The position numbers and the translations under genes are program-made. From positions 1 to 58,934 of the forward strand of contig JAYVGI010000171.1 in assembly GCA_043772355.1 (NCBI GenBank): DNA of 58,934 bases, given 5' to 3'. Positions 43,991 to 58,934 of the stretch are shown one piece after another. The notes below the pieces were generated by a model that was not told the DNA's origin, made no database searches, and saw only the letters and a program-made list of their open reading frames with translations. The stretch is from Polaromonas sp. Its GTDB lineage: Bacteria; Pseudomonadota; Gammaproteobacteria; Burkholderiales; Burkholderiaceae_C. The stretch's first letter is position 1. Every line of letters begins with the position of its first letter.

Positions 43991-44004
43991 GATCCAAAAA
44001 GGCT

Positions 44005-44354
44005 GAGCCAGTTTGTGCACCACAAGGGCTCTCGGTCAACAGGGCTAGCAGCCATGGCGCGCGGACTGTTCAACACCAACGACAGCATGGACAGGCCTTG
44101 CTCGGTATGAGCGTTTCAAGCAAGGCTCCTGCACGTGTGGTGATACCGGGTGTAATCGGCAGCAGCTGCGCATGGCGCTGGGTCAGCATCTTCTTGAGCG
44201 CCAGTAGTTCGGTTTTGTTGTGCATACCTTGCACTAGTTCAAAGTAGCTCACCTAAGAAAGAATCAAGGCAGGCAGTTGGTTCAGCCGCTGGGTTGCTTG
44301 AGGGTAGCCTCGCAGATGCCAGATCAGTACATCGGTACCAACGAGTACGTTCAT
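44005..44354 (-). pseudogene. Decayed PIN-domain (VapC-like) toxin gene
   Basis: The reverse complement from the ATG at 44354 reads MNVLVGTDVLIWHLRGYPQATQRLNQLPALILS*VSYFELVQGMHNKTELLALKKMLTQRHAQLLPITPGITTRAGALLET... It has an in-frame TAG, and the C-terminal part is out of frame. Confidence 0.55.
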
Positions 44355-44533
44355 GGAATATTTCGTGCACCATCACGCCCATAGCGCGGCTCTCTCAGTT
44401 TGCGCACATAAGCTGGTACATCCGCCATGTCTTGTCTATCGCGCCAGATACCAAAAGCGGGATCACTGGTCTCAAAAGGCACTTCTTGCACGACCTCTTC
44501 TTCAATGCGCACGCGCACTTGGGCAGACCCCAC
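44351..44533 (-). pseudogene. Remnant of the cognate antitoxin (stop overlaps the vapC-like ATG, ATGA)
   Basis: C-terminal ...DPAFGIWRDRQDMADVPAYVRKLREPRYG resembles the tails of some VapB-type antitoxins. No convincing N-terminus or start. Confidence 0.4.
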
Positions 44534-44661
44534 CAGCTGCAGCTTTTTGCGCCAAAAGCGAATGCCACGTGGCTCGTGCGCCCGCCGCGCAGGTCTTATG
44601 ATCTCGACCGCGCACCCCAGTCTGCGCGGCGTGCTGTGGTGGTGTGCACTTCAACACCCCA

Positions 44662-44905
44662 CTTACTCTATAAATCATAGCACTCCATCTAAGCAGGCCA
44701 GTGGGGTACACGGGGTAGCGGCATTAAATGGATGCGCCGCAGGAAACTGGGTCACTATTTGCCGTAAACCTGGCTGTAGACCACTGCAGTCGAACTAGTC
44801 ACTACTCATTCCATAGCTGCTCCCGCTTTATTCTAGGAGGCTACAGCGCGATAAGTATCTCAAAAGCGGCGCCAAAACCGGTGAATTTCCAGTTTACAGC
44901 CGATT
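44662..44905 (+). repeat. Second copy of the intergenic element of about 250 nt (paralogue of 11212..11460)
   Basis: See 11212..11460. Contains an ATAGCTGCT-type unit at 44800-44847. Confidence 0.65.
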
Positions 44906-44944
44906 TTCAGGCCCTCGGAAGGTTCGTCGTTCTTCTAACTGCGT

Positions 44945-45184
44945 TTAATGGCGCGGGCCACGCGCAGCGCGCGCCGCCTTGACTTCGGCATTGATCTCTT
45001 GCATCGACATCGGCGCAATATCCGCCGCCGCCACGCGCCCGGCAATGGACAACAACGAATCCGCCGCCGCACGCCTGCGCAGTGCCTGCGTGAGCAGTCT
45101 GTCCAGGGCTTGGGGGGTTAACAAACCAGCCGCACGCGCAGCCAGGGCGGTGGTGTCGGGCAATTCAATTTGCAGTGTAGTCAC
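44945..45184 (-). CDS. Orphan antitoxin-like protein (no toxin gene downstream)
   Basis: 79 aa. MTTLQIELPDTTALAARAAGLLTPQALDRLLTQALRRR...MSMQEINAEVKAARAARG resembles antitoxins that normally precede PIN toxins. Repeats occupy the position where the toxin would be. Confidence 0.5.
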   Translation of the reverse strand: MTTLQIELPDTTALAARAAGLLTPQALDRLLTQALRRRAAADSLLSIAGRVAAADIAPMSMQEINAEVKAARAARGPRH

Positions 45185-45241
45185 AAGTGTATTCCTCTAC
45201 TGAAAAGTCACCAATCTGCGTCCATTGTATGAGCCAATGCA

Positions 45242-47906
45242 TTGCGCCGCCAAACGTGGTCACTATTCGGTGACGCACGCAAGGGCTTCGAAGGCCACAA
45301 AGTGACCTATGATCGAAACGGCAACCGTACCAGGGACACCACCTACGGCAACCAAGTCAGCCGAGGCGCCGATATCTATCTTGGCACCAACACCGCAGGC
45401 AACTTAGTCGCCTACACCTTGGAGAACTACGAGTCCAGCCGGTACAACAACCACTACACCATGGCCCTGGAGCGGAGCCGACTTTAACTTTGGCTACCAG
45501 CCGATCAACGGCAACTACCCCAGCGCCAGCGTCGGCAGCTACCAGGTAGCCACCGGCGACACCCTGCAAAGCATCGCCCAAGGGGCCTACGGCGACAGCA
45601 GCCTGTGGTACCGCATAGCGGATGCCAACGGATTAGCCAGCAACGCTGACCTGCGTGTGGGCCAAACCCTGAGCATCCCCAACCGGGTAGGCACCGTGCA
45701 CAACTACGGGGCCAACAGCGCCGCCGGGGGTGCCAGCGGTACCGGCAGCTTCAAACCCTATGACCCGAGCAAGGTGCAGGGGGACAGCACGCCCAACTTG
45801 CCCGCACCGCAGGCTGAAGACGGTGGCTGTGGCGGTTTGGGGCAGATACTGATCATCATTGTGGCGATTGTGGTTACGGTGGTGACCTATGGGGCAGCAG
45901 CCCAAGCCGGTGCCAGCCTCATCGTAGCCGGTGCAGTAGGCGGCGCAGCCGGTGCCATCGCCAGCCAAGCGGTGGCTATCGCCATCGGCCTGCAAGACGA
46001 CTTTAACTGGAAAGGCGTGGCCCTGGCCGCCATTGGTGGGGCCATCGGCGGCGGGCTGTCCACATATGCTCCACTAGGTGGGGCCGTCAACAGCACCGCC
46101 AACGTCATCGTGCGCGCTGCCGTAGGCAATGCAATGACCCAGGGCGTCGCCGTGGCCACCGGCTTGCAAGCCAAGTTTGACTGGAAGGGCGTGGCCATCG
46201 CCGCCGTAGGCGCAGGCTTAGGCAGCGCTGTGTCCGAGGGCTTGGGCGACAGCGTCATGCGCGACGACGACGGCAACGCCTTCCTGGATGCCAAAGGCAA
46301 CTTTGAGCGCTGGAAGGGCAGTGGCGTGATGGCCGAGCTGGGGCGCAGCGGCGACATCATCCGCAGCAGCCTGTCAGGCGCGGCGGCTGGCATTACCGCA
46401 GCCAGCATGCGCGGCGGGCGGGTTGACATCACACGCATCGCCTCGGACGCCTTCGGCAACGCCCTGGGCAATAGCTGGGGTGAGCAGATCAATGCCAGTG
46501 TGCAGGAGGGGAAACTGCGCGAGGTGAGTGCTGGGCAGCAGGGCACGGGGCCTTATTCGGCAAACGATTACCGCAATGGCATGGACATGGATAGTGATAA
46601 CTACAACCCAAGCCAAGCTTGGGGTACCAGTCAATCGATTGATCGAAGCGGTTTTTCTAGAACAAATGCACTCATGGCAGACAGTTCAAATCCATCGTTT
46701 GTGATGGATCTTCCACCCAGCGATGAGGAGCTCAATGCAAACGGTGAACGCCCCGGCCTTGTTGCTGGACCAGGCGTAGCCAAATCAGGGCCAGGTATCC
46801 GCGCCCGTAGCCAGGCTTTGATGACGCAATACTTGGATGCAGCTTATCTACCCGAAGGTCAAGAACGCCTGCGCGCACAACACGAAAGTTTATTGGGTAT
46901 TCGGCAACTGCTGGGTGAATATGACAGTAACCCCAAATACTTGCAAGACGAGCTGGCCAATATGCAGCAGATGGCCTCGGGAGGAAAGGGCTTAGTCGGG
47001 CAGCGTTTTGGTGGCACTTCTGCCGATCAGCCTTACAGCATGATTGAAGTGGCGGCTGGTTCGGTTCTGAATCAAAACGCTCTGGGTCTTGGCTCAATCA
47101 TGATGCCCTTGACCAGCAATGAATTCTCTTTCCGCCGCAATGGTGATGCCATGGGTGGATTCATGGCATTGCTGTCCATGGCGGATCGCGATGGTGTGAT
47201 TGATGGCTTACGCGACATTGGTAATCAAGAGGTCAATGCCTTTGGGCGTCCGATGAATGCCTTACAGTTTGCCGGCACTCGGGAATCGGCCGGTAGTGTG
47301 ATGATGATGCTTGGCACGAGCCCTGCGCTAGCTGCTGGGCAGTTTGCACGAGGTGTTGCCACCAGTAAAGCGATGGCAGCAGAGGCTTGGGTTCAGGGTG
47401 CTGCTAACAGGTATTTGTCGCAGGTGGACGTGCGGGGGAGTTCGTTCTTGGCGGATCAGGCGTTGTCCGTTGGTAGTTCAGTACGAGTTCTCCCGAAGAA
47501 CTGGCAGGGACCTTCTGCGGGTACGGGGCGTTTTGTTGGTGAAAAAGGCAACTCTGAATTTGTTCTTAGCAGCAGCGCAGCAAAAGAGTTGAATCTTCCA
47601 CAAGGTACGACCGTTCGATTTGTGAATGGTACACCTGACTTCGGACCACAAACTATCAAGACACCAGCGGGAACTTCCGGTAGCTTCAGCGTAGAAGAAT
47701 TAACGTATAGTCGTGGTAACGACGCTACAGCCACAGTTAGGCACTTAGCCAATGAGTCAAACATGACACCAAGTCAGGTGAGAGCGTGGTTGAGGGAGCA
47801 AGACGTTCGCATGCACCACTTCCAGGGCAACGTAATGCAACTGGTACCAACGCGGTTGCATCAAGTTGTGCACCATACGGGCTCGGTTGGAATGAGTGGA
47901 AAGTAA
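45242..47906 (+). pseudogene. Orphan polymorphic-toxin module 1: YD-repeat fragment joined by deletion and frameshift to LysM, TM/Gly-zipper region and an HNH/EndoVII-fold (WHH/GH-E-like) nuclease C-terminus
   Basis: 45242-45476 (frame 2) reads ...YDRNGNR...AGNLVAYTLENYESSRYNNHYTMAL. From about 45474 (frame 0, open from 45408, no ATG) it reads GADFNFGYQPINGNYP..LysM..GCGGLGQILIIIVAIVVTV..., near-identical at nucleotide level to 53520-54330. About 350 nt (equivalent to 53585-53935) are missing at the junction. The C-terminus is ...RMHHFQGNVMQLVPTRLHQVVHHTG. Confidence 0.75.
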
Positions 47907-47909
47907 AAA

Positions 47910-48359
47910 ATGTCGATCAACAGCATACTTATCAAAAAGATTCAGCCTATTTATTCGCAGTATGAGCCTGCCAGCGAACTTGAAGTGGTAGAGGCCGAAC
48001 GCGTTATAGGCGCGAGATTCCCTGAAGTGTTACGTGATCTCCAGCTTCACTACGGCCGTCTAGGGTTTGCTGGTGATACACGTATCTGGTGCGATGAGTT
48101 GAGCGACCAATTGTCTCCATTTACAGTTTTTGGATGCAAAGGTGACAAAGGTAATTTGGTAATGGATTACACCGACCATCCTGATTTGCAAGCTCGAAAA
48201 CTAGTTCCATTTGCGGATGATTTGTTAAACAATAGGTTTGTATTTGACGTAACAAGTGAAGCCATCTATTTTGTAGACTACTGTCGAACTCGTGCAATTT
48301 ACCCGTTAGCAAGTTCGCTGAGCGAATTCTTTGATCGAATCGAACTCATCCCCGAGTAG
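47910..48359 (+). CDS. SMI1/KNR4 (SUKH-1) family immunity protein
   Basis: 149 aa, starting 4 nt after the toxin stop. The N-terminal pattern ...SELEVVEAERVIGARFPEVLRDLQLHYG... and the overall size fit SUKH immunity proteins. Markedly lower GC than its surroundings. Confidence 0.75.
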   Translation: MSINSILIKKIQPIYSQYEPASELEVVEAERVIGARFPEVLRDLQLHYGRLGFAGDTRIWCDELSDQLSPFTVFGCKGDKGNLVMDYTDHPDLQARKLVPFADDLLNNRFVFDVTSEAIYFVDYCRTRAIYPLASSLSEFFDRIELIPE

Positions 48360-49783
48360 TAATGCCTTTGGCAATGCGTTGGGGAGCAGCTGGGGTGAGC
48401 AGATCAATGCCAGTGTGCAAGAGGGGAAACTGGCGCAGGTGAATGCGGAGAACCAGCGGGAGGCCAACCGGTTTGCTTCGGGGGCGCAGGCGAATGCGGC
48501 GTATGCCAGCAGCAATCGCTTTGCCGCGATAGATGCGATGGCCGCAGGCGCTTCGGGTTATGAGTTCACGCCTGATATGAGCCCAGAAAACGCCAGGGCG
48601 CTGCGCCAGACCATGGGATTGAATGTCAATGATCTGAATGAGCCGGTGTTGGTGGCGGGGGGCGAGGGTTTTGTCGTTAGGGAGCGGTAAATTGCATGTG
48701 TTGCCGGTTGGTCGAACAACCTTTTTGGACGATACCGGCGACTCTTCCACCCTTGATCAGCTCAAAAAGCTTCAATCAGAAATAGGCGCACTGAAAAACG
48801 CACAACGACTGCGTAACGAAAAAGCCAATACAGAGCTGGGCTTGAAACTTGACCGTCTATCGCCGATTACGAAGGGCAGCTACGGCGATGAAATGCCCTT
48901 TGACGTAGGCTATGTAGACAACACCACGCCGCAGCCCGGTGCCTCCAGCGGCACGGGCCTGAGCCTGAGCTCGCGCACAGGCTTTAACCTGCAAAGCAGC
49001 GGCCAAGGTCTGTATACCAACGGTGGGCCACTGGACAACTTTGGCAGAGGCTTTAGCGGTAGCAATAGCTGGAGCGTGCTGGAGGGCGATCAACCCATCT
49101 CCTACACCATAGGCAGCGGCCTGCGCTCTGGGCTGGGCCTGTTCGTCGGCGAAGAAGACTTCCACCAAGCAGGCCAAGCCTGGCAACGCGGCGAGTATGG
49201 CTCGGCATCAATGTACGCGCTGCGAGGCGCTGGCGCGGCTGGATTGACAGTGGCGACAGCGGGGCAGTTTGCACTGGCTAAGGCTGGGATGTCGGGGGTG
49301 GTGGGCGGGACGGGGTTGCGGGCTAGTGCAGCTTCCGGAGGTGTGGCCCATCCGCTTGCAGGCATGGCTCCAACGGACGTTATCAATTCGGTGCAGCAAT
49401 TAGGCCTTCAAACGGGGCGCGACGAATTGCTCTTATGGTCGGGCTTAGGCCGAGGCCGTGAAGGCATCATTCGCTCTCAGGAGTACGCAGCACAGAATGG
49501 TGGCCGTACATTAGAGATGACACCAGGAGGCAAATGGCTAGACAGTATGGATCTATATGGCGCGCATTCGCCCTTTACTCGTTCTGAAGCGGATCATATA
49601 TGGGGCTCAGTGTCTAAATCGTTAGTCGAACAAGCTAGCGGCCAAGTGCGCGCGTTGCAAGGCCAAGTAAGGCCAACTAGCGTATTTCGCCAGATAGAAT
49701 TACCCGCGCTGCAAGCAAACCCTAACATCTTGGGATTAGACCCTGTACGACTTAAACCTGCTTATCAATTTGGAAGAAACTAA
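48360..49783 (+). pseudogene. Orphan polymorphic-toxin module 2 (junction motif + linker + ADP-ribosyl-cyclase/CD38-like C-terminal domain), frameshifted
   Basis: Begins directly after the immunity stop with (D)AFGNALGSSWGEQINASVQEGKL; there are 32 identical nt to 46473-46504. The frame-1 stop is at 48688-48690, and reading continues in frame 2 (ORF 48638..49783). A G6 run lies at 48657-48662. The C-terminus is LLLWSG...RTLEMTPGG...HIWGSVSKSLVEQASGQV...SVFRQIELP. Confidence 0.7.
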
Positions 49784-49784
49784 T

Positions 49785-50084
49785 ATGTTTACTTGGCTCA
49801 ATAAACAAGGTGTGCGCAGTGAACGCGGATTCGAAGTTCAATTTACTGGGCGTTTCGATGCCGAGTATCGGGAAGAAAGAAAATGCGTTTCTTTCCAAGT
49901 TGAGGCTGGTTTGAGTGGTGGGCTGCAATGCATCATTGTTGACCCTCACATTTTCGAGCACTGGGATGGCGGCGCCGTAGTTGAAAATATCTCGCCACTT
50001 CAACAATCTCAGATGTTTCAAAATCTGCGAGAAGCTATGGAATTTCAAGGATTAAAGTTAGTGGTGGAAAAAGCCGAGAGCTGA
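49785..50084 (+). CDS. Putative immunity protein for module 2
   Basis: The ATG lies 2 nt after the toxin stop. 99 aa, low GC: MFTWLNKQGVRSERGFEVQFTGRFDAEYREERKCVSFQVE... Assignment is by position only. Confidence 0.5.
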   Translation: MFTWLNKQGVRSERGFEVQFTGRFDAEYREERKCVSFQVEAGLSGGLQCIIVDPHIFEHWDGGAVVENISPLQQSQMFQNLREAMEFQGLKLVVEKAES

Positions 50085-50090
50085 AAACGC

Positions 50091-50119
50091 TCGCAATCGC
50101 AATCGCAATCGCAATCGCA
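50091..50119. repeat. (TCGCAA)4-5 hexanucleotide microsatellite
   Basis: tcgcaatcgcaatcgcaatcgcaatcgca, read directly from the sequence. Confidence 0.9.
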
Positions 50120-50180
50120 CACAAGGATCACTCATTTCCCATTTTGATGCGCTCCAGCAAGGGGTCGCAAGCACAAGCAA

Positions 50181-50336
50181 GGACCACGAGGGTCACAAGG
50201 ACCACGAGGGTCAAGTCTCCCATTTCCCATTTTGATGCAGTCAACTCGCTATCAGCATAAGCGCTGCAAATCATTTCCTACACCGACTACGCTATTTATT
50301 ACGTAGCTTCTCCCACAATATTTTAAATGGCTACAA
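50181..50336 (+). repeat. Island composite repeat, type A (gaccacgagggtc tandem + gtcaagtctcccatttcccattt + ...gcataagcgctgcaa... + ATAGCTGCT-type unit)
   Basis: 50205-50336 aligns with 57266-57400 along its whole length. Confidence 0.75.
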
Positions 50337-50499
50337 GACCACCAGCATAAAAAAATCGGCTCGATAATCGGCGAATTTGTGCGCTTTTACGCCGCCGCCA
50401 ATAGCCTGCAGCCCAATAGATAATTGCGCAAGCATCTACTGAATATGTAGTGAGTGAGTGAGTCGCACTGTGCGACCACCTCAGCGCGTACAGTTTGCG

Positions 50500-50943
50500 C
50501 TACTTGGTGTGGGAAGGCTTGACAGCTGTGGTCTTCTTTGCTGCACTCAGCACTTTGGCCTTGGGTTTGACCACCTCTTTGGGATGCACAAAGCCAATCG
50601 GCCTTTTATGCGCCACAGGCGCGGCCAGCAACTGGCGCATGGAATCGATCAACTCCGCAATCGCCTGGTCATGTTTGCTTACTTTGCGCTCCAGCAAATG
50701 CAGCTTGTTGGACAGCTCCCGGTTCGTTGCCAGCATGCTGCGCAGTTGCACAAACGCCTGCACTACGTAGATGCTCAACTCTGTGGCACGCGGTGAATTG
50801 AGCACCATCGATGCCATGATCGCGCCATGCTCTGTGAACGCCATAGGTGCATAACGGCGACCACCCCGGCCATCGGGCTGGCGGCAGATAAAGCCTGCAA
50901 AAACGGTACAGCTCAGGCATTTATTGCTCAGTAAACTATGCAT
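50500..50943 (-). pseudogene. 5'-truncated ORF6N-domain (KilA-N-related) protein gene
   Basis: From ...GGRRYAPMAFTEHGAIMASMVLNSPRATELSIYVVQAFVQLRSML onward it matches the C-terminal two thirds of ORF6N proteins. The N-terminal DNA-binding part is absent and the first 25 codons or so look unrelated. Confidence 0.55.
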
Positions 50944-50953
50944 CGCTTCGCAA

Positions 50954-51352
50954 CTAAGCTGGCCAAATACTGTGCACCTGCAGGTCTGTCACTCGCTTGA
51001 AATCATCGACATTACCCGTCAATAAGCCAATACCTTGCACAATGGCGGACGCGGCAATGACTGCGTCGGGCAGCTTCAAGCCAAACTGCTTGCGTATGCG
51101 TATGGTGTCTTGCACCACTGCCTCAGTCAATGGTATCTCGTGCAACTTGCTCAGCAACTGGCCCATTTGCTGCAACGTGATGTCGCTGTAGCCCTTCCAG
51201 CCCAGCACCTCAATGCGCGTGATCACGCTGATGTAGGCATTTTTGGCATCCATCGCTTGTCGCACAGATGCCTTCACCTGGGCAGACAGGGTGCCCTGTA
51301 AGTTGTAAATCAAAACATTGGTGTCTAGCAGCAAAGGCATAGAGTGAGCCAT
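50954..51352 (-). CDS. vapC: PIN-domain toxin (VapC-like)
   Basis: ORF 50954..51376. The ATG at 51352 overlaps the antitoxin stop (TAATG). MAHSMPLLLDTNVLIY... and ...DAVIAASAIVQGIGLLTGNVDDF show a typical PIN acidic-residue pattern. Confidence 0.85.
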   Translation of the reverse strand: MAHSMPLLLDTNVLIYNLQGTLSAQVKASVRQAMDAKNAYISVITRIEVLGWKGYSDITLQQMGQLLSKLHEIPLTEAVVQDTIRIRKQFGLKLPDAVIAASAIVQGIGLLTGNVDDFKRVTDLQVHSIWPA

Positions 51353-51609
51353 TACACACCCAGGGGTCGATCCCATTCAGCACGCATAGCGGCTAGCTGG
51401 GCATCAATATCTGCGCGGCTGGCGTGGCCTAAAGCACCGCTTAGCTGTTCAAACAGGCTGTAGGCATCGGACGGTGCATTTTGTGCCGGTGTAGTTAGCG
51501 CATTAGTGTCTACCACCACGATGACTTCATGGCGTTCTGGCAGGGCAGGCGGCTGTCCTAGCCAAATAAGCTGTGATCCTTCAAGCTGTGCTTTGTAAGT
51601 CTGCAACAT
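51352..51609 (-). CDS. Cognate antitoxin (DUF104-like N-terminus)
   Basis: 85 aa. MLQTYKAQLEGSQLIWLGQPPALPERHEVIVVV... Translationally coupled to the PIN gene. Confidence 0.6.
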   Translation of the reverse strand: MLQTYKAQLEGSQLIWLGQPPALPERHEVIVVVDTNALTTPAQNAPSDAYSLFEQLSGALGHASRADIDAQLAAMRAEWDRPLGV

Positions 51610-51740
51610 GATGCACTCCGTGGTTTATCAAAACATTCAATATCTATCTATTGTAGGCATGCAGTGCAGTTTAGGAGCATTTAGTGTGTCGGCACAGACT
51701 ATTTGCCCAACAAAACAGCCGATAGTCTTGGTATTGACAC

Positions 51741-52018
51741 ACAAGGGTCAGGTCTTGAAATGCAACATCGCAGGACCACGAGGGTCGGACCACGAGAGTC
51801 AAGTCTCCCGTTTCCCATTTCTACGTAATCAGTTTTCGACTGATGCGCAAGCATCTGGTCAATCCATCTTGACTGAGAGCAGTCAAAAATCGAGGTTAGA
51901 TGAAGTTAAACCTGATACCCAACGCATCTTCGTTGGCATGTAATAGTGCAGCTAAAGACGATACCGTATTTGCTACTAACTCCATAGCTTTTCCCGCTAT
52001 ATTCTATTGGGCTACAGC
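51741..52018 (+). repeat. Island composite repeat, type B (full-length reference copy)
   Basis: acaagggtcaggtcttgaaatgcaacatcg + gaccacgag tandem + gtcaagtctcccgtttcccatttctacgtaatcag... + aaaaatcgaggttagatgaagttaaacctgatacc... + ATAGCTGCT-type unit (51967-52018). Its halves recur separately at 57140-57260 and 56866-56994. Confidence 0.75.
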
Positions 52019-52139
52019 CCGATGTATCTCTAAAAATAATCAAAAAATAGATAGATGGGCAACCAAAACCCAATTTCCAGACCGCCAGAGCATCAGCCCA
52101 TGGAATCGCATTTCCAGGCCCCACAGAAATCCCAAACGT

Positions 52140-52562
52140 CTAGTGGTGAGCAGGCTCTTGCAGCAACAGCGCTGTGAACCCCGCTTGGCTAAAGTGGTGG
52201 TCAGCGGCCAAAGCGTGTGTGATGCCTCGCTCGCGCATCAGCTCAAAACTGGCGCAGTCGCACAGGCTCCAGTCTTTGTCATGGTGCTGCGCAAACAAGG
52301 CAATGGCTTTGTCCCGCAGGGTCGCGGTGATGGGTGCGGTTTCAATCGACAGGTCGTGCAGTAAGGTGTGGATGATGGCGCTGCCCACAGCGCGGTTAGC
52401 CGCTTTAGAAAACGCCGCGCCCACCTCAAACACCACTGCCTCGGTGGTCAATAGCGGGCAACGCTCACGCTGTATCTGGCTTTGCAGCGCAGCCGCTTGC
52501 GCATGGTAGGTGTCTTTCGGCGAGAACAGGGCAATCAAAAACCCTGTATCTAAAAACCACAT
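52140..52562 (-). CDS. vapC: PIN-domain toxin (VapC-like)
   Basis: 140 aa. MWFLDTGFLIALFSPKD... The start overlaps the antitoxin stop by 1 nt. Confidence 0.85.
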   Translation of the reverse strand: MWFLDTGFLIALFSPKDTYHAQAAALQSQIQRERCPLLTTEAVVFEVGAAFSKAANRAVGSAIIHTLLHDLSIETAPITATLRDKAIALFAQHHDKDWSLCDCASFELMRERGITHALAADHHFSQAGFTALLLQEPAHH

Positions 52563-52777
52563 CAGCGCAGCACCTGTTCAAAGTTGACCGAGTAGTCGGC
52601 AGGCGCATCAATGCGCATGGTGGAGGCCAGCTCCCACAGGCTAGGCACGGTGGTGTTGGCAGCCTGCGCGGGCCGCACAATCACCTCAACCTCTTCGCCA
52701 GGCACCAAGCGCGCGTCTACAAGATGCACGGCATGGTGTGCATCGACCCGGATTCGTTCGCTAATCACAGCATTCAT
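52562..52777 (-). CDS. Cognate antitoxin (DUF104-like)
   Basis: 71 aa. MNAVISERIRVDAHHAVHLVDARLVPGEEVEVIVRP... Coupled to the PIN gene. Confidence 0.6.
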   Translation of the reverse strand: MNAVISERIRVDAHHAVHLVDARLVPGEEVEVIVRPAQAANTTVPSLWELASTMRIDAPADYSVNFEQVLR

Positions 52778-52884
52778 GGCATTCCTTTGCAGCGCGGTGC
52801 GCCAGTAAACGCCATTGTAGGTGCAGCGTGTAGTGGGTGCAGGTTGGATGGGTTGCTTTGCCTGTTTACCCTATGATGCTAGTC

Positions 52885-52932
52885 GCTATTTATTCAGTAG
52901 CTGCTACCGCACAATTTTATTGGTCTGCAGCC
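52885..52932 (+). repeat. ATAGCTGCT-type dispersed repeat copy
   Basis: gctatttattcagtagctgctaccgcacaattttattggtctgcagcc. Confidence 0.7.
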
Positions 52933-53057
52933 CCATAGACACCTTAAAAACAGCTCCCGCACGGTCGTATTAGCAGTTCAAAACCGATTTTCGAGTCTCC
53001 TGCGCCCTCGGAAGCCTCAAAATTGACCATTTTCAGCCCTTTTCAAGATGCAAATCC

Positions 53058-53104
53058 GCCTGTAGTCCAATGGAATATTGCGAGAGCAGCTACGCAATAC
53101 ATAG
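53058..53104 (-). repeat. ATAGCTGCT-type dispersed repeat copy
   Basis: The reverse complement is ctatgtattgcgtagctgctctcgcaatattccattggactacaggc. Confidence 0.7.
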
Positions 53105-53120
53105 CATTTATTTTCAATGA

Positions 53121-56100
53121 GGAGGCTACTATAGTAGCACCACCGAGTCCAGCCAGCCCCTCTACGGCCCCAGCTACAGCGCCACCCAAGGCCAGGCCAC
53201 CGAGACCTACAGCTACGACGCGCTGAACCGCCTGAGCACCGTCACCCGCGACGGCACCTTGGTAGACACCCGCGTCTACGACGGCGCAGACCGCGTGGTG
53301 CAGACCGGCCCGGCTGGAACACTGAGCCAAGCCTACGTCAACGCCCTGTACGGCACCAACGCCGCAGGCAGCGCCAACCCCGGCAACGGCTCAGAGACCC
53401 GCGTCAACCGCTTTGACGACAACGGCCGCTTGCTCACCCAAGTCGTCTACAGCGCAGACAACACCCTGAGAAACGTCATCAACTATCAAGGCGGCTACGA
53501 CGGCGCAGGCAACCTGACTGCCTACACCCTGGAGAACTACGAGTCCAGCCGCTACAACAACCACTACACCATGGCCCTGCAGCGGGCAGGCACCTACCAA
53601 CAAGCCTCCACCAGCGGCACCAGCACCCTGTTCACCCCCGGCACCAGCCGCAGCCACTACGACGTCAACGGCAACCTCACCGCCATCACCGACGACACCA
53701 AAGGCGAGAACAACCGCAGCTTTGTCAACGACATCAGCGGCAAAGCCCTGCAGGTCAGCCAAAGCGGCAATGTGCAGCGCCAACTGGTGGTGGGCGGCGA
53801 AGTATTGGCCCGCTACGGCGTGGGCATTGACGAAGTCAACCCCCGCGACTCCAGCGGCAACCCCAACTTCGCCCCCATCGGCACCAGCAGCGGGGGCAGC
53901 GTCATCGGCGCCATCCCCGGCCAGGTGAGAAACGGGGCCGACTTTAACTTTGGCTACCAGCCCATCAACGGCAACTACCCCAACGCCAGCGCAGGCAGCT
54001 ACCAGGTAGCCACTGGCGACACCCTGCAGACGATTGCCCAAGGGGCCTACGGCGACAGCAGCCTGTGGTACCGCATAGCGGATGCCAACGGCCTGAGCGG
54101 CAACAGCGACCTGCGCGTGGGCCAAACCCTGAGCATCCCCAACCGGGTAGGCACTCTGCACAACTACGGGGCCAACAGCGCCGTGGGGGGTGCAGGCAGT
54201 ACCGGCAGCTTCAAGCCCTATGACCCGAGCAAGGTGCAAGGCGACAGCACGCCGAACCTGCCTGGGGCCAGTGGCGGGGAGGATGATGGCTGTGGCGGGA
54301 TGGGGCAGATCTTGGTGATCATTGTGGCGATTGTGGTCACGGTGTATACGGCGGGTGCGTTTGCGGCAGCCAGTGGTGGCCTTACGGGTGCGGCGGCAGG
54401 GGCCACCGCTGCTGCCGCAGGTGGTGGAGCCGCAGGCACCTTTGCTGCTGGTGCAGCCGCATTGGGCGGCACCTATGGCGCAGGCGTTGCAGTGGCGGCA
54501 GGTGTGATCGGCGGCATCGCAGGCTCGGTGGTCAGCCAAGGCGTAGGCATCGCCATCGGCGTACAAACCGAGTTCAGCTGGAAAGGCGTAGCCCTGGCCG
54601 CCATTGGCGGTGCCGTCTCGGGTGGGCTAGCAGGAAGTGGCGCATTTGCCGGTGCGGGCCTGGGCAGCGTCATCACCCGCGCAGCGGTAGGCAACGCCCT
54701 GACTCAGGGCATAGCCGTTGTCACCGGCTTGCAAGACAAATTCAGCTGGAAAGGCGTGGCCGCCGCAGCCGTAGGCGCAGGCGTGAGCTTTGGGGTGAGC
54801 GAAGCCCTGAGCGCAGCCAACAACGGTGCGGGTGCCTTTAGCAGCTTGGGCGAGGTTGGCGGCAAGCTGGCCCGCGCCAGTCTGACAGGCTTTGCCGCAG
54901 GCCTGGCCACCGCAGCCGCACGCGGCGGCAGGGTCAGCATCACGCAGGTGGCCACCGATGCCTTCGGCCAGGCGCTGGGCGAGAGCTTTAAGGACGGGCT
55001 GGTGAGTGCGGGGCAGCAGGAGATGGCGCTACGGGATGCGCACAGTGAGAACCAGCGGCAGGCGAACCGCTTTGCTTCGGGGGCGGCTACAAACTTGGCC
55101 AATTCACCTGGCGCTGCAAGCCAAGCGACTGCGCTGGCGCAGGATGAGTTGTTGGGTGGGGGCAATATACGAGCCAGAGGACTCACGGCAGCGGACTTCG
55201 CCAGCGGCACCCAGTTTGACGACGGTGCAGGTGCAATGAACCAAGACTGGGAAGACAGAATGGCTGTGAACTACGGTTCAAAGCCGCAAAACGCACTTTA
55301 TCGTCCTGGTGAGGAAGATGCGGCTCTTATCCAAGTCGCTGATAAATCCAATGGTAAATCGATACCCTTAGACACTGAGAGCGCGAAATTTGGAATTGTG
55401 CGGGATAAACCAGGCGAATACGTCAAGCAAGTGAAAGACCTCCTGAAATCTGCTCCAGATAGTGCCTCCACAGCTGTAACAGAGGAGTTGGTCGAGAAAT
55501 ACGGAAAAGACCTTAAGGGACTCGTGAAGCAGGGAGTTGGAAGTTCGATGACTGGTTCGTCAAAGGCCGACGGGTTTGCTAACAATAGCTACGACATTCG
55601 ACCATACCCTGAAGAAGCGTTGAACAATACAAGCAATTTAACGTACCATAAGTATGGGCTCATAACTTATCTTGGCCCGGTTGATCAAGAGCTGGGTATC
55701 GATAAAGAATTTGTGCGTAAAGAGGTACTTGAAAAGCGCTACGGTTTTCCCGGCAAGAACCTTGAGCCTGCGCCTGCAAACATCGGTGGAAATTCAGTAG
55801 TATTTGCAGTTCCTGTAGGCAACGTGATTCCTTCTTCTAAACTAGATAATCCAAATAACTATACCTACCCAATAGGCGTAATTACTCAGGAGCGCGTGCC
55901 CGACGGCATTGTTAATATTACGACTGAAAAACATGATGTGTATCCTGGTACGATTAGGCGCACAGTTGTTGAGGTCGACGGCCATTTATTTATGTATACG
56001 AGTGGTGCTGGCGAGAACCGTTATAACAACGAAGGACTCAACGTTCGGCAACCAGCAGAGGGCCTTGCTGGGCAGGGTTTTGCACAACTGGTGACCCGAT

Positions 56101-56201
56101 ACGCAGCGGCTGCCGGTAACGATAACTATGGGCCGCTGGCTTTCAGAGCGCTGGATCGACAAGCGGTTGGGTATCTGAACACGATAAGGGCTAAACGTTG
56201 A
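53121..56201 (+). CDS. Polymorphic toxin, longest copy (YD repeats - LysM - Cys/TM helix - Gly/Ala-rich FxWKGVA repeats - DAFGQALG junction - unassigned C-terminal domain); 5'-truncated, no ATG/RBS
   Basis: The frame is open from 53121 (stop TGA at 53118-53120). Homologous YD sequence (YSYDALNRLSTVTRDGTLVDTRVYDGADRVVQT) begins about 53200, directly after dispersed repeats. The ORF track starts at a TTG at 53259. LysM: YQVATGDTLQTIAQGAYGDSSLWYRIADANGLSGNSDLRVGQTLSIP. Whether it is expressed is uncertain. Confidence 0.75.
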   Translation, partial: GGYYSSTTESSQPLYGPSYSATQGQATETYSYDALNRLSTVTRDGTLVDTRVYDGADRVVQTGPAGTLSQAYVNALYGTNAAGSANPGNGSETRVNRFDDNGRLLTQVVYSADNTLRNVINYQGGYDGAGNLTAYTLENYESSRYNNHYTMALQRAGTYQQASTSGTSTLFTPGTSRSHYDVNGNLTAITDDTKGENNRSFVNDISGKALQVSQSGNVQRQLVVGGEVLARYGVGIDEVNPRDSSGNPNFAPIGTSSGGSVIGAIPGQVRNGADFNFGYQPINGNYPNASAGSYQVATGDTLQTIAQGAYGDSSLWYRIADANGLSGNSDLRVGQTLSIPNRVGTLHNYGANSAVGGAGSTGSFKPYDPSKVQGDSTPNLPGASGGEDDGCGGMGQILVIIVAIVVTVYTAGAFAAASGGLTGAAAGATAAAAGGGAAGTFAAGAAALGGTYGAGVAVAAGVIGGIAGSVVSQGVGIAIGVQTEFSWKGVALAAIGGAVSGGLAGSGAFAGAGLGSVITRAAVGNALTQGIAVVTGLQDKFSWKGVAAAAVGAGVSFGVSEALSAANNGAGAFSSLGEVGGKLARASLTGFAAGLATAAARGGRVSITQVATDAFGQALGESFKDGLVSAGQQEMALRDAHSENQRQANRFASGAATNLANSPGAASQATALAQDELLGGGNIRARGLTAADFASGTQFDDGAGAMNQDWEDRMAVNYGSKPQNALYRPGEEDAALIQVADKSNGKSIPLDTESAKFGIVRDKPGEYVKQVKDLLKSAPDSASTAVTEELVEKYGKDLKGLVKQGVGSSMTGSSKADGFANNSYDIRPYPEEALNNTSNLTYHKYGLITYLGPVDQELGIDKEFVRKEVLEKRYGFPGKNLEPAPANIGGNSVVFAVPVGNVIPSSKLDNPNNYTYPIGVITQERVPDGIVNITTEKHDVYPGTIRRTVVEVDGHLFMYTSGAGENRYNNEGLNVRQPAEGLAGQGFAQLVTRYAAAAGNDNYGPLAFRALDRQAVGYLNTIRAKR

Positions 56202-56224
56202 TGAGAGCTAAACAAGGAAATATT

Positions 56225-56800
56225 ATGATGCCTCTCGACAAAAAAACTGTCACGGTATTGGTTTGTCTTTTTTCGTTTATTTGGACTGGATGTATGGCAC
56301 TTGAACAAAAGTCAACTGATTCGGCGATCAAGCTCGTCAAACGCATGAAAATTGAGGAGATGATTATTTTTGGTTTTAAAAGACCATTTCTAGTTGGCCT
56401 TCAAGCGGTAACAAAAGAAAATTTAGATGCGCAACGTTATATGGCATGCCTCGACAGTGTAGATCGCACCACGATGAGAGCTGGTATTGCGGAGAGAATT
56501 GTTGAAAAGTTTACTGCTTCAGAGCTTTTAGATGCTCTGCAGTTTTACGACAGTGAGGCAGGTGAGAAATTTGTTTTGCGTACAAACGCGCTAGTTCTGA
56601 GGGAGATGGGTATTTCTCAAACTCCGAATCTACCTGTGGAAGAGTTAGATGACATTGCGAGGAGTCGAGTTGAGAGTTTTAAGCGTAGTCCTGTAGGAAA
56701 AAAAATTGAGGCCGAAGGATTTTTCAGTTCCTCAGAATACCTCCTACCAGGGCTTCAAATCATGCAAAAAAGAATTGAGTGGTGCCAATCGCAACCATAA
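56225..56800 (+). CDS. DUF2059-like lipoprotein, putative periplasmic immunity protein for the 53121..56201 toxin
   Basis: ORF 56198..56800. The ATG at 56225 follows aaggaaa. Signal and lipobox MMPLDKKTVTVLVCLFSFIWTGC. The segment EKFTASELLDALQFYDSEAGEKF resembles the DUF2059 signature (f.T.eEL..l..FY.Sp.G.K). Low GC. Confidence 0.55.
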   Translation: MMPLDKKTVTVLVCLFSFIWTGCMALEQKSTDSAIKLVKRMKIEEMIIFGFKRPFLVGLQAVTKENLDAQRYMACLDSVDRTTMRAGIAERIVEKFTASELLDALQFYDSEAGEKFVLRTNALVLREMGISQTPNLPVEELDDIARSRVESFKRSPVGKKIEAEGFFSSSEYLLPGLQIMQKRIEWCQSQP

Positions 56801-56865
56801 TAAGAGCCTGACGCAAGCACTCAGAGCGATCAGTTTGGTATATGCGACGGTAGACTAAGGAGGCG

Positions 56866-56994
56866 TAAGTGGGGTCGGATCAAATAAAAACTGATACCTA
56901 GCGTGTGTTCGCTGACATGCAAGAACGCGGTAAAAGGGTTGTAACCGCTACTAACTAAATAGCTGCTACCGCAATAGTTCATTGGGCTAGAGGC
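56866..56994 (+). repeat. Island composite repeat type B, 3' half only (with ATAGCTGCT-type unit 56947-56994)
   Basis: ggggtcggatcaaataaaaactgatacctagcg...gctactaactaaatagctgctaccgc aligns with 51893-52018. Confidence 0.7.
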
Positions 56995-57028
56995 ATATAT
57001 TGTCGGTAAATTCAGCCTCCCGTCCGGT

Positions 57029-57137
57029 GCAGCACCAGCAGCAACGGCGTAGTCACCGGCACCATCCCCGGCCAAACGCGCAACGGGGCCGACTTCAACT
57101 TTGGCTACCAGCCCATCAACGGCAACTACCCCAGCAG
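57029..57137 (+). pseudogene. Toxin-gene fragment of about 110 nt (…GTIPGQTRNGADFNFGYQPINGNYPSS)
   Basis: Aligns with 53880-53990 of the long copy. It is bounded on both sides by island repeats. Confidence 0.7.
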
Positions 57138-57139
57138 CC

Positions 57140-57400
57140 GCGAGGGTCAAGTCTCCCGTTTCCCATTTCTACGTAATCAGTTTCGACTAATGCGCAAGCA
57201 TCTGCCAATCCATCTTCACTGAACGCAGTCAAAAATCGGGGTCAAATGAAATTAAACCGGCCAGGAGAGTCAAGTCTCCCATTTCCCATTTCCCATTTTC
57301 ATGCAGTCAACTCGTTATCAGCATAAGCGCTGCAAGTCATTTTTCACACCGAAAACGCTATTTATTACGTAGCTGCTCTCGCTGTATTTCAAAGGTAAGC
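57140..57400 (+). repeat. Island composite repeats: type B 5' half (57140-57260) followed by type A (57263-57400)
   Basis: gagggtcaagtctcccgtttcccatttctacgtaatcag...aaaaatcggggtcaaatgaaattaaaccgg, then ccaggagagtcaagtctcccatttcccatttcccatttt...ctatttattacgtagctgctctcgc. Confidence 0.75.
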
Positions 57401-57610
57401 GTCCGGTAAACCCATCTTGCACTCAAGCGCCCAAGCACGCACAAGCGCAAGGGTCAGGTCTTGAAATGCAACATCGTAAGCCTTTGGAACACCTGTCTTG
57501 AAGACGGTTTTGACCGTGGTAACGCATCCAAGGTTACGGGGCTCTCCCAGCGCCTTGCGCTCGCACTAAAGCGGCAGTCTTGAGCGGCTTCAAGGCGTCT
57601 ATCCTCCGTC

Positions 57611-57652
57611 GGCCTATGAGAAATATGCGCAAGCAGCTACGCAATGCAGAGC
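57611..57652 (-). repeat. ATAGCTGCT-type dispersed repeat copy
   Basis: The reverse complement is gctctgcattgcgtagctgcttgcgcatatttctcataggcc. Confidence 0.65.
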
Positions 57653-57700
57653 ATCTATTTTCTCAATTGCGTGCTTTTTTCATAGCCTTTGCTCAATCCC

Positions 57701-57901
57701 TTACCCCATCGCCTCCACCAGCTCAATCTCGCGTTGGAGCAAATCATTGACCAAGGCCGACAAGTCAATGCCCTTGGCCTGCGCTTTGGCAGCCAGGTAG
57801 CCTTGCACCCGCTCGTCCAGATACACGGGGAGTTGAAATACCGCGTTAGCTTGGTAGAACTTGCCGCGTTGGCCTTTTGAAAAGTCGTAATGTTCGTTCA
57901 T
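57701..57901 (-). CDS. brnA: BrnA-type antitoxin (RHH/CopG-like)
   Basis: 66 aa. MNEHYDFSKGQRGKFYQ...VYLDERVQGYLAAKAQAKGIDLSALVNDLL, downstream of brnT in the toxin-first order typical of BrnTA. Confidence 0.8.
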   Translation of the reverse strand: MNEHYDFSKGQRGKFYQANAVFQLPVYLDERVQGYLAAKAQAKGIDLSALVNDLLQREIELVEAMG

Positions 57902-57946
57902 GCTATCACCTTAAAAGTGGGTACTTTGACAACCGTTTTAGCTACC

Positions 57947-58273
57947 TTATCGCGGGGCCTGCTCATAGTCTTGTCGCTCTTGCTTATCCGCCTTGCGGGC
58001 GGAGATTAGCCGCACCTCAATGTGCTGGGCATCTAGCTGCACAAAGGTGTGTACCACCACCAATGTTTGGCCATTTTCAGCCTGCCCCATGCTCACCCAG
58101 CGCTCTTCCTGGTCGCTATGCTCATCATCGTAAATCGTTAGGGCCAAGGGGTCATGCAGGACAGTGCTAGCCAACTGAAATGTCACCCCATCGTGCTTTT
58201 GCACGTTGGTGCGCTCCTTGTTGGAATCCCATTCAAAACGGTACAGCGGCCTGGGTGTCATGCTCGCCATCAT
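57947..58273 (-). CDS. brnT: BrnT-family (DUF497) toxin
   Basis: 108 aa. ...YRFEWDSNKERTNVQKHDGVTFQLASTVLHDPLALTIYDDEHSDQEERWVSMG...LVVVHTF...IRLISARKADKQERQDY is the typical BrnT pattern. Confidence 0.85.
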   Translation of the reverse strand: MMASMTPRPLYRFEWDSNKERTNVQKHDGVTFQLASTVLHDPLALTIYDDEHSDQEERWVSMGQAENGQTLVVVHTFVQLDAQHIEVRLISARKADKQERQDYEQAPR

Positions 58274-58335
58274 ACCCGCCTAAGAATTCGATTTCAAAAC
58301 CGATCTGCTGGATCAGCCCGAAGAAATAGACCCTC

Positions 58336-58859
58336 AGCACCAGCCGCAGCCGGTACGATGTCAACGGCAACCTGACAGCCGTCACCGACGACAACCAGCC
58401 AGCCAACAACCGCAGCCTCATCAACGACCTGAGCGGCAAAGCCCTGCAGGTCAGCCAGCAAGGCAACGTGCAGCGCCAACTGGTCGCGGGCGGCGAGGCA
58501 CTGGCCCGCTACGGTGTGGGCATTGACGAAGTCAACCCCCGGGACAGCAGCGGCAACCCCAACTTCGCCCCCATCGGCACCAGCAGCGGGGGCAGCGTCA
58601 TTGGGGCCATCCCCGGCCAAACGCGAAACGGCGCTGACTTTAACTTTGGCTACCAGCCCCTAAACTCAAATCATCACGGCAACTACCCCAGCGCCAGCGC
58701 ACGCCCAACCTGCTGCCAGCGCCTTGTGACGGCGGGGGCGGGGGTTGTGGAGCGATGGGGCAGATCTTGGTGCTAATTGTGGCCATTGTGGTTACGGTGC
58801 TGACTTATGGGGCAGCCACGGCCGCGCTTGGTACAAGCTTAGGGCCTGTTAACAAATAA
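58336..58859 (+). pseudogene. Toxin-gene fragment 3 (YD/pre-LysM segment fused by deletion to the Cys/TM helix; LysM missing; frameshifted; premature stop)
   Basis: Reads ...SRYDVNGNLTAVTDDNQPANNRSLINDLSGKALQVSQQGNVQRQLVAGGEALARYGVGIDEVNPRDSSGNPNFAPIG...GADFNFGYQPLNSNHHGNYPSASA. In another frame it then reads ...CGAMGQILVLIVAIVVTVLTYGAATAALGTSLGPVNK*, with the stop at 58857-58859. Confidence 0.7.
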
Positions 58860-58934
58860 CATAAGCAATATCAACCCGATAGAATTTGATAATTCCAATC
58901 ACCATGGAACTCATGTCGCACGAGCTTGATAGCC

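Follow-up and report, generated by a model that had tools for sequence, protein, structure and literature searches.

What is the function of a protein tail that resembles no recognisable toxin, when the gene directly behind it encodes an exported protein? This question is raised by a contig of Polaromonas sp. (JAYVGI010000171.1, assembly GCA_043772355.1), of which positions 1 to 58,934 of the forward strand were analysed; this stretch of 58,934 nucleotides (nt) is referred to here as the window. The element in question consists of a long open reading frame (ORF; 53259-56201, plus strand, 980 amino acids (aa)), which begins in YD repeats and ends in a C-terminal domain (CT, or tip), and of a small gene downstream of it. 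The preferred reading, to which a probability of about 0.72 is given, is that positions 53190-56800 hold an orphan cassette, a spare toxin-immunity unit from a family of polymorphic toxins, and that the tip exerts its effect outside the target's cytoplasm. From sequence comparison, tip and partner most likely represent a previously undescribed toxin-immunity pair acting on the envelope or the membrane.

An undescribed family of putative toxin tips

Sequence and profile searches place the CT in no known family. Residues 661-980 gave no Pfam match better than E=0.22, and the toxin tail gave neither an NCBIfam match nor a PDB sequence match at E<=10; searches with a profile of the family likewise assigned it nowhere, and 39 of 39 diverse family members lacked any Pfam match. 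Regular-expression searches of residues 611-980 found no HNH/HxH, HExxH, GxSxG, HxKxxxxD (PLD), M23, colicin-M, Rhs DPxGL or VENN motif, and the catalytic motifs of the known periplasmic toxin classes (Tae/NlpC-P60, Tlde1/YkuD, Tle/PLD, M23/LAS and colicin M), among them a catalytic Cys-His, GxSxG or HxKxxxxD, HxxxD/HxH and DxYDx5HR, are absent from the tip. A first-pass annotation, made from the letters alone, had seen no recognisable toxin motif in this tail, and the Pfam, NCBIfam, PDB-sequence and motif searches bear it out. It had also named the placement of the CT in a known toxin family as a result that would speak against a new pair; the Pfam, NCBIfam and PDB searches produced no such placement.

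Relatives of the tip are few in comparison with the databases searched. These include 17 proteins (39-80% identical, 191-390 aa) from a word-indexed search of 5.8 billion proteins and 112 matches, 30 of them below 1e-30, from a full hidden Markov model (HMM) search of 1.84 billion cluster representatives, each standing for a cluster at 50% identity. A scan of one genome per species across 185,579 species returned three CT loci, in Variovorax and Rhodoferax, and a tblastn search of plasmids returned none. The family is found in several protein contexts: at the C-terminus of proteins with LysM and YD repeats (P0018, P0022, P0025 and P0032); behind canonical Rhs cores (P0040, P0041 and P0047), one of these proteins being the TcC-like partner of a SpvB/TcdB/RHS gene; as stand-alone proteins of 295-390 aa in type VI secretion system (T6SS) clusters, between ClpV or TssF and VgrG (P0004 and P0012); as lipoproteins (P0008, P0011, P0013, P0029 and P0033); and in proteins of ~550 aa that combine a Sec signal with an FG-GAP-like region and with paired cysteines.

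The CT comprises a three-helix N-terminal subdomain (aa ~712-760), which is present in a closer subfamily, and a widely shared core (aa ~775-980) that corresponds to the last ~200 aa. Over alignments of 39-67 diverse family sequences, H797, P831, Q877, N886, T888, H892, G897, G916, G918, N954, D955, G958 and F962 are invariant, and Y799, R901, T914, N920 and D966 nearly so. Since homologues, domain matches and conserved synteny were all found, what the first-pass annotation observed is not due to chance. As judged by these comparisons, the tip is a real, rare and previously undescribed family of putative toxin domains.

An exported partner of the DUF2059 type

The toxin ORF ends with a TGA at 56199-56201 and is followed, after a gap of 23 nt, by the ATG of the partner gene at 56225, as the first-pass annotation had recorded in placing the next start 24 nt after the stop. 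In five metagenome contigs, gene callers place the start in the same region and give a product of 190 aa. The window product (191 aa, beginning MMPLDKKTVTVLVCLFSFIWTGC) passes the Pfam threshold for DUF2059 (PF09832; 31.2 bits against a cut-off of 23.6, E=2.3e-7), with the match at about 56474-56617, which confirms the DUF2059-like block that had been proposed from the letters. A profile of the partner family weakly finds the DUF2059 structures 2x3o (PA0856), 3oao and 6f03 (BPSL2520), with E~0.01, and several members of the putative immunity clade lie below the Pfam DUF2059 threshold.

A signal peptide with a lipobox-like IWTG-C23 is encoded at 56225-56293. Of the earlier description of this protein as a lipoprotein, the export signal stands and the lipoprotein class is uncertain: in ...FSFIW-T-G-C23, positions -1 and -2 fit the pattern [LVI][ASTVI][GAS]C, the Trp at -3 is atypical, and the relatives mostly carry ordinary signal peptides ending in AxA-type sites. 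Looser rules of the PROSITE type allow a Trp at this position. Most of the aligned partners have an N-terminal hydrophobic segment resembling a signal peptide, the two shortest entries having none as called, and two cysteines are invariant in the alignment (Cys75 and Cys187 in window numbering). At the level of sequence, the signal peptides and the invariant Cys pair are the signature of an exported, disulfide-bonded partner.

The association of tip and partner is conserved. An HMM scan of the fetched loci identified ten independent lineages in which the tip is followed directly by a DUF2059-like ORF, namely the window group, L021, Variovorax OK212 (L001/L009), Rhodoferax (L010), L006, L022, L024, L027 and two T6SS clusters, of which one (L002/L023) carries four tandem partner paralogues and the other is represented by L003-L005. 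At one extreme the start of the partner overlaps the end of the tip ORF (-4 nt), and at the other it lies 303 nt away. Because the partner gene of the window has its own Shine-Dalgarno sequence and ATG (Table 1), it is expected to be expressed, and it would probably confer protection against neighbours that deploy this toxin.

Some loci have no DUF2059 partner. In two of them (L025 and L028), the tip is followed by a polytopic membrane protein, the two being homologous to each other (36% identity, E=1e-22), and a third membrane protein is found in L029; none of the three has a Pfam match. Such polytopic membrane proteins probably serve this toxin family as another kind of immunity protein, and they also point to the envelope. 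The lipoprotein form P0008 (L007/L008) retains the full set of conserved residues and has a convergently oriented GMC oxidoreductase gene as its neighbour; the ORF upstream of it in L007 is not DUF2059-like. This form may be housekeeping or ancestral. In L011, a CT remnant of 108 aa lies between housekeeping genes.

A probable orphan copy in an array of cassettes

The CT is carried by the remains of a much larger scaffold. From N- to C-terminus, the 980-aa protein consists of a YD/RHS-repeat remnant, a LysM domain, a hydrophobic transmembrane segment with glycine-zipper repeats, a linker and the tip (Table 1). The repeat remnant is recognised from an RHS repeat at aa 52-91 (E=7.8e-4, 20.2 bits against a 22-bit cut-off) and from YDxxGN motifs at aa 80 and 134, and the RHS_repeat signal is strong in relatives (E=2.6e-104 in P0032). 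Mean Kyte-Doolittle values exceed 1.6 in windows starting at aa 342-355 and 407-417, with a strong transmembrane segment from ~aa 345. This region is kept between the modules of the array described below, with 42% overall identity to module 1 across it, and it is also found in P0032, P0022 and P0136. The Rhs core autoproteolysis motif DPxG(L/W) is absent from all 980 aa, its position being occupied by the LysM and glycine-zipper regions, and no N-terminal secretion or trafficking domain is found in the window ORF. In the linker, residues 1-62 of a first AlphaFold model have a predicted local distance difference test score (pLDDT) below 50.

The composition changes along the element. The GC fraction is 0.66 over 53190-55100, 0.48 over 55250-56201 and 0.42 in the next gene, around a window mean of 0.58, so that the sharp fall noted earlier from ~55.25 kb is evident in the numbers. 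The observation that the toxin tail contains no Cys holds as well, C345 being the only one in the whole protein.

The 5' end of the ORF lies inside the repeat region. In the upstream sequence that was read, there is no ATG or GTG and no obvious Shine-Dalgarno sequence; the first start is a TTG within a YD repeat at 53259, and 5' of it the reading frame can be followed through further YD-repeat sequence (ETYSYDALNRLSTVTRDG) as far as a stop near 53118. In a search of the representative library, residues 125-979 matched P0032, a relative of 5411 aa, over its residues 4547-5408 only; in P0032 the C-terminal order (LysM, transmembrane segment, glycine zipper and tip) is the same as in the window. 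The window ORF thus corresponds to the last 18% of a full-length giant YD-repeat architecture. A metagenome contig (L022:3-3920) contains a further YD ORF of at least 1306 aa that ends in a tip of this family. No canonical Rhs core was found in the inspected part before the tip in either carrier, and the first 1500 aa of P0032 contain RHS repeats only, with no recognisable secretion or trafficking domain, PAAR or VgrG.

The cassette belongs to an array. It comprises four truncated, paralogous modules (within 45242-58934) that differ from one another in their tips and each have a small gene behind the tip; they share the part that corresponds to aa ~287-600 of the 980-aa ORF and then diverge, and the DNA tracts common to the copies are 86-91% identical. 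Module 1, whose tip is nuclease-like, also carries a LysM domain, and the module 2 tip with its 104-aa downstream ORF is a further toxin-immunity candidate. A strain variant, P0018 (974 aa, locus L016), is ~99% identical to the window protein over aa 561-980 and ~60% over aa 1-140; at about aa 281-350 it hardly differs from module 1 of the window. Locus L016 has the same tip and immunity gene (~99% identical) behind a different upstream module, with a 630-aa ORF, a 203-aa ORF and ParE. This mosaic indicates cassette recombination and active shuffling at the locus. In related contigs with the same cassette, the array ends in housekeeping genes on its downstream side. A full-length parent gene was found neither in the window nor beside the array in these contigs, and a search for it with homologues of the N-terminal part returned only further truncated copies.

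Several features by which polymorphic toxins, as defined by Zhang et al. (2012; PMC3482391), are recognised are seen here: a conserved scaffold with a hypervariable C-terminal domain, an array of orphan tip and immunity cassettes and, from synteny, a putative cognate immunity gene downstream with its own Shine-Dalgarno sequence. The window copy of the toxin is without start-codon context and without all of the N-terminal delivery parts. It probably stays silent unless recombination joins it to a full-length gene. The 980-aa ORF could alternatively be expressed as a short form that suffices by itself (made up of YD stub, LysM, membrane anchor and toxin), is inserted in the envelope of the producer and is delivered by some route. 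This is unlikely. In its favour, several strains and genera (P0018, P0022 and L016-L019) have undamaged ORFs of 957-980 aa that share this N-terminal boundary, no adjacent full-length gene was found, and even the giant relative P0032 has no recognisable secretion domain. However, such a protein would have to be made from an ORF that lacks an ATG or GTG and an obvious Shine-Dalgarno sequence and that begins in the middle of a repeat region which continues for ~4500 aa in P0032; moreover, sister modules are visibly decayed, as seen in the deletion and frameshift of module 1 at ~45490-45560.

Predicted fold and pocket

The AlphaFold model of aa 702-980, built from the 39-sequence alignment, is confident (pLDDT 92.5; predicted template-modelling score 0.90). 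It consists of a bundle of three helices, an antiparallel sheet accompanied by two short helices, and a C-terminal helix of 40 residues; the topology is beta-alpha-(beta)-alpha-beta4, followed by the long C-terminal helix packed on the sheet. The structural comparison that the first-pass annotation had proposed was carried out with Foldseek on two models against the PDB and gave no significant match (best E=9e-3; template-modelling score <=0.42; root-mean-square deviation 7-13 Å). In both runs, the top matches were overwhelmingly START, Bet v 1, PYR/PYL, AHSA1 and aromatase/cyclase proteins, all of them below significance. A comparison with the viral structures of BFVD found nothing. The term helix-grip-like is used here as a description of the predicted topology only and not of family membership.

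The conserved residues are arranged regularly on the model. On the strands they alternate with an i/i+2 spacing (H797/Y799, N886/T888, G897/I899/R901 and T914/G916/G918/N920), and on the C-terminal helix N954-D955, G958, F962 and D966 lie on one face. From this arrangement we infer that they line a pocket between sheet and helix, the place where helix-grip proteins hold their ligands. In the model, the polar and charged character of the pocket residues argues for catalysis over simple lipid binding. Two more specific readings of the site were set aside. An ADP-ribosyltransferase (ART) reading (H-Y-E) of TYHKYG was dropped because no ART is among the Foldseek matches and no conserved Glu follows, and a 2-His-1-carboxylate metal site, as in the helix-grip domains of Rieske oxygenases, does not fit in spacing, the two His being 95 residues apart.

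Site and mode of action

The first-pass annotation had argued that an exported immunity protein implies a periplasmic or envelope target. The synteny of the partner in ten lineages and the occurrence of membrane-protein partners support this view. Some members of the CT family, in addition, carry their own Sec signal or lipobox; exported or membrane-embedded partners together with tips that have export signals of their own point to a site of action outside the cytoplasm. According to the proposed mechanism, the toxic tip would act in the periplasm of the target cell or at the outer face of its inner membrane, and the DUF2059-like partner, exported and disulfide-bonded, would neutralise it there, most likely by direct binding. 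The tip would be an enzyme and not a pore former, as suggested by its predicted soluble alpha/beta fold with a sheet against the 40-residue helix, and its pocket would be formed by His797, His892, Arg901, Gln877, Asn886, Asn954-Asp955 and Asp966, which are predicted to point into the space between sheet and helix.

As for the substrate, a membrane lipid or a lipid-linked precursor (lipid II, undecaprenyl-pyrophosphate-linked intermediates or a phospholipid) is the first guess, held with slightly less than even confidence. It is suggested by the helix-grip-like pocket, by the membrane proteins that replace DUF2059 as immunity alternatives and by the occurrence of START-like tips with lipid-head-group toxins (PMC12419801). 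Peptidoglycan is the second choice as a substrate, at clearly lower confidence.

One rival concerns this second choice. The tip could be a hydrolase or modifying enzyme of peptidoglycan that does not act on lipids, in the functional class of Tae, Tge and Tlde, with DUF2059 as a classical periplasmic inhibitor. The partner is a putative periplasmic protein, a peptidoglycan-binding LysM domain lies upstream in the same polypeptide, and the lipoprotein homologues without immunity gene are reminiscent of hydrolases with a housekeeping role in the cell wall, which are often lipoproteins. In addition, the DUF2059 protein RgsH is located at the growth pole in Sinorhizobium meliloti (bioRxiv 10.1101/2020.02.13.948760). 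We nevertheless consider this rival unlikely, as the model with a pLDDT of 92 is unlike amidases, muramidases, LAS/M23, NlpC/P60 and YkuD enzymes in fold and motif, the tip has no Cys, and the polytopic membrane partners fit a membrane-associated target better. The LysM domain, for its part, is a component of the conserved scaffold, outside the tip, and it is equally present in the nuclease-like module 1.

A second rival, which is improbable, takes the tip for a START-like binder of ligands or lipids that is not an enzyme, with a role in adhesion, sensing or sequestration, and takes DUF2059 for a functional partner instead of an immunity protein. It draws on the fact that the sole structural resemblance is to ligand-binding helix-grip proteins and on the lipoprotein and Sec-exported forms that have no DUF2059 neighbour. 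Against it are the exchangeable C-terminal position in polymorphic toxins and the VgrG-adjacent cargo genes of T6SS clusters, the cassette-like low GC and the tandem partner arrays, which are typical of immunity genes; the invariant residues, moreover, are polar or charged (His, Arg, Asp, Asn and Gln) and not the hydrophobic lining of a cavity.

A third rival, which is very improbable, has the tip reach the cytoplasm of the target and attack, for instance, nucleic acids or nucleotides there, with the DUF2059 gene unrelated to immunity. Other tips of the array do look cytoplasmic (the WHH/HNH-like end and SUKH immunity of module 1), and the glycine-zipper region could conceivably be a membrane-translocation device. 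Against this, ten lineages have the same exported partner as the gene next to the tip on its downstream side, no small cytoplasmic ORF is conserved there, the searches revealed neither a motif nor a fold of a nuclease, deaminase, ART or NADase, and some members have signal peptides of their own and conserved Cys pairs.

The preferred reading of an orphan cassette with a mode of action outside the cytoplasm has its own difficulties. Toxicity, binding and neutralisation of the CT and its partner are proposed from comparison of sequences, the substrate is a guess, and the similarity of fold is weak at the values given above. The P0008 loci have neither a DUF2059 nor a membrane-protein neighbour, which is hard to reconcile with a lethal periplasmic enzyme, and the lipobox of the window partner is atypical in its Trp at -3. 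Finally, the ORF is intact at 974-980 aa in several strains, which could mean expression, and neither a T6SS gene nor a full-length parent gene is among the scanned window ORFs.

Relation to known systems

Compared with Rhs/YD polymorphic toxins, the window shows the same succession of YD repeats, variable low-GC tip and immunity gene, the same kind of 5'-truncated array of spare modules with 86-91% identical tracts and strain mosaicism, and a tip whose relatives follow canonical Rhs cores in other organisms. Rhs orphans also occur in Enterobacteria. The differences are that the window protein has a LysM domain, a transmembrane segment and a glycine zipper instead of an Rhs core with DPxGL, that no PAAR, VgrG or other delivery domain is recognised in P0032, and that the array has no adjacent main gene.

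In the Tae-Tai, Tge-Tgi and Tle-Tli pairs, the immunity proteins are periplasmic proteins or lipoproteins. The stand-alone CT homologues (295-390 aa), each followed by one to four genes for putative exported immunity proteins, resemble these T6SS pairs, in which exported immunity marks a periplasmic site of action. However, the CT is unrelated in sequence, motif and fold to amidase, muramidase, lipase and L,D-transpeptidase-like effectors, no T6SS gene was recognised among the scanned window ORFs, and the partner is a DUF2059 protein, for which a literature search found no link to immunity. The search likewise found no link of SRPBCC proteins to T6SS effectors.

By analogy, the functional class of colicin M and of TelC and the lipocone toxins (PMC12419801) is the most likely class for the window tip: these toxins act only outside the cytoplasm, and their immunity proteins are exported or membrane-anchored. 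The tip differs from them in having no colicin M motif and no structural match to colicin M or TelC. START-like helix-grip tips that accompany lipid-head-group toxins have been described behind a lipobox and a cystatin-like domain (PMC12419801), an architecture that is not seen here. With the START/Bet v 1/SRPBCC superfamily, the CT would share the predicted topology and the placement of conserved residues towards the pocket between sheet and helix; it differs in scoring below significance, in giving no sequence or profile match, in its additional three-helix N-terminal subdomain and in a pocket of invariant polar residues.

The window partner resembles DUF2059 proteins (PF09832) in exceeding the Pfam threshold, and the family profile finds three solved structures; the putative immunity clade differs in being divergent, longer than the solved structures and provided with a conserved Cys pair. 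RgsH, the DUF2059 protein of S. meliloti, is described as periplasmic (bioRxiv 10.1101/2020.02.13.948760), and a literature search found no function given for the domain. Polymorphic toxins with orphan cassettes and T6SS pairs with periplasmic immunity are well known. The tip, as a family of putative toxin domains with no significant match among solved structures, and the carrier, with LysM and a glycine zipper in place of the Rhs core, are new, as would be the use of DUF2059 as an immunity family, which is suggested by synteny.

Toxins deployed between bacteria have repeatedly revealed new enzyme chemistries and weak points of the envelope, as in the cases of Tae, Tle, TelC and colicin M, and may offer leads to drug targets. 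With a confident fold, a compact set of invariant polar residues and a neutralisation that appears to be extracytoplasmic, the CT is a tractable candidate for a new envelope-directed activity; if its activity proves ordinary, it would be one more effector family. The widespread DUF2059 domain gains a first testable role, as immunity protein or inhibitor, and the giant YD-LysM-glycine-zipper protein is an unusual carrier architecture. A bolder version of the proposal, which is unlikely, holds that the tip is the founder of a new enzyme class with a START-like pocket and a His/His/Arg/Asp-Asn site, that it destroys a lipid-linked intermediate or membrane lipid in the periplasm, that DUF2059 proteins generally inhibit or regulate such enzymes, and that the giant carriers are an uncharacterised delivery route. 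If true, the DUF2059 proteins PA0856 and RgsH, an essential polar-growth factor, would gain a first function, the lipoprotein homologues without immunity gene would be explained as housekeeping relatives, and the carriers would anchor to peptidoglycan and thread the tip across the outer membrane.

Features of the array and its surroundings

The features discussed above and the other modules of the array are collected in Table 1.

Table 1. Positions of the cassette, of the other modules in the window and of the membrane-protein partners in other loci (positions without a locus name are those of the window).
Feature	Position	Strand	Basis or remark
Orphan, 5'-truncated polymorphic-toxin cassette	53190-56201	+	YD-repeat homology from ~53190, after an in-frame stop near 53118
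YD/RHS-repeat remnant, aa 1-245	53259-53990	+	Pfam RHS_repeat below threshold; YDxxGN motifs; RHS_repeat in homologues
LysM peptidoglycan-binding domain, aa 248-294	54000-54140	+	PF01476, E=1.3e-7, 31.9 bits against a cut-off of 20.9
Hydrophobic transmembrane segment and glycine-zipper repeats, aa ~345-560	54291-54940	+	Kyte-Doolittle; module comparison
Linker, aa ~611-711, start of the variable low-GC part	55090-55391	+	Predicted disordered; similarity between modules ends at aa ~600-610
C-terminal putative toxin domain (CT), aa 712-980	55392-56198	+	Family alignments, conservation, AlphaFold
Shine-Dalgarno sequence AAGGAA of the putative immunity gene	56214-56219	+	Read from the sequence, 5 nt before the ATG
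Putative immunity gene, exported 191-aa DUF2059-like protein	56225-56800	+	Pfam DUF2059; family alignment
Module 1	45242-47906		5' YD part broken by an internal deletion and a frameshift near 45490-45560
Module 1 ORF, 749 aa	45657-47906		Last 30 aa weakly resemble WHH/HNH nuclease, E=0.003
SUKH/SMI1_KNR4 immunity gene of module 1	47910-48359		
Module 2	48331-49783		Opens with a very short shared tract (AFGNALGSSWGEQINASVQEGKL)
Module 2 tip, ~380 aa	48638-49783		No Pfam or NCBIfam match
Module 2 downstream ORF, 104 aa	49770-50084		Overlaps the tip ORF; no Pfam or NCBIfam match
Truncated LysM-region module fragment, 110 nt	57032-57142		
Fourth module	58330 to window end		
Polytopic membrane protein downstream of the tip	L025:1144-1746		~200 aa, ~six transmembrane segments
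Polytopic membrane protein downstream of the tip	L028:598-1182		~200 aa, ~six transmembrane segments
Membrane protein, 134 aa, ~four transmembrane segments	L029:4569-4973		Downstream of the distant Sec-exported member P0043

Between the cassettes, at 50500-52777 and 57701-58273, lie genes of type II toxin-antitoxin systems. The first group holds two VapC-like PIN genes, each with a small partner gene upstream of it (50954-51609 and 52140-52777, minus strand), and the second a BrnT toxin gene (57947-58273) with a 66-aa partner (57701-57901), also on the minus strand. In the Rhodoferax locus L010, too, the cassette is followed by a VapBC-like pair. At the cassette junctions there is a repeated non-coding element with the core CCACGAGGGTCAAGTCTCCCGTTTCCCATTT, up to ~250 nt long, at 50202-50327, 51790-51912 and 57138-57393, and its copy at 57138 abuts the truncated LysM-region fragment. 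An Rfam scan of 44000-58934, the repeated element included, gave no match; possible explanations of the element are a small mobile element and a scar left by recombination. Farther away, the window begins with an 806-aa ORF (439-2859) that has no Pfam match, and it also encodes a Fic-domain protein (13727-15226) and a YhcG/DUF1016 PD-(D/E)xK nuclease (28060-29385).

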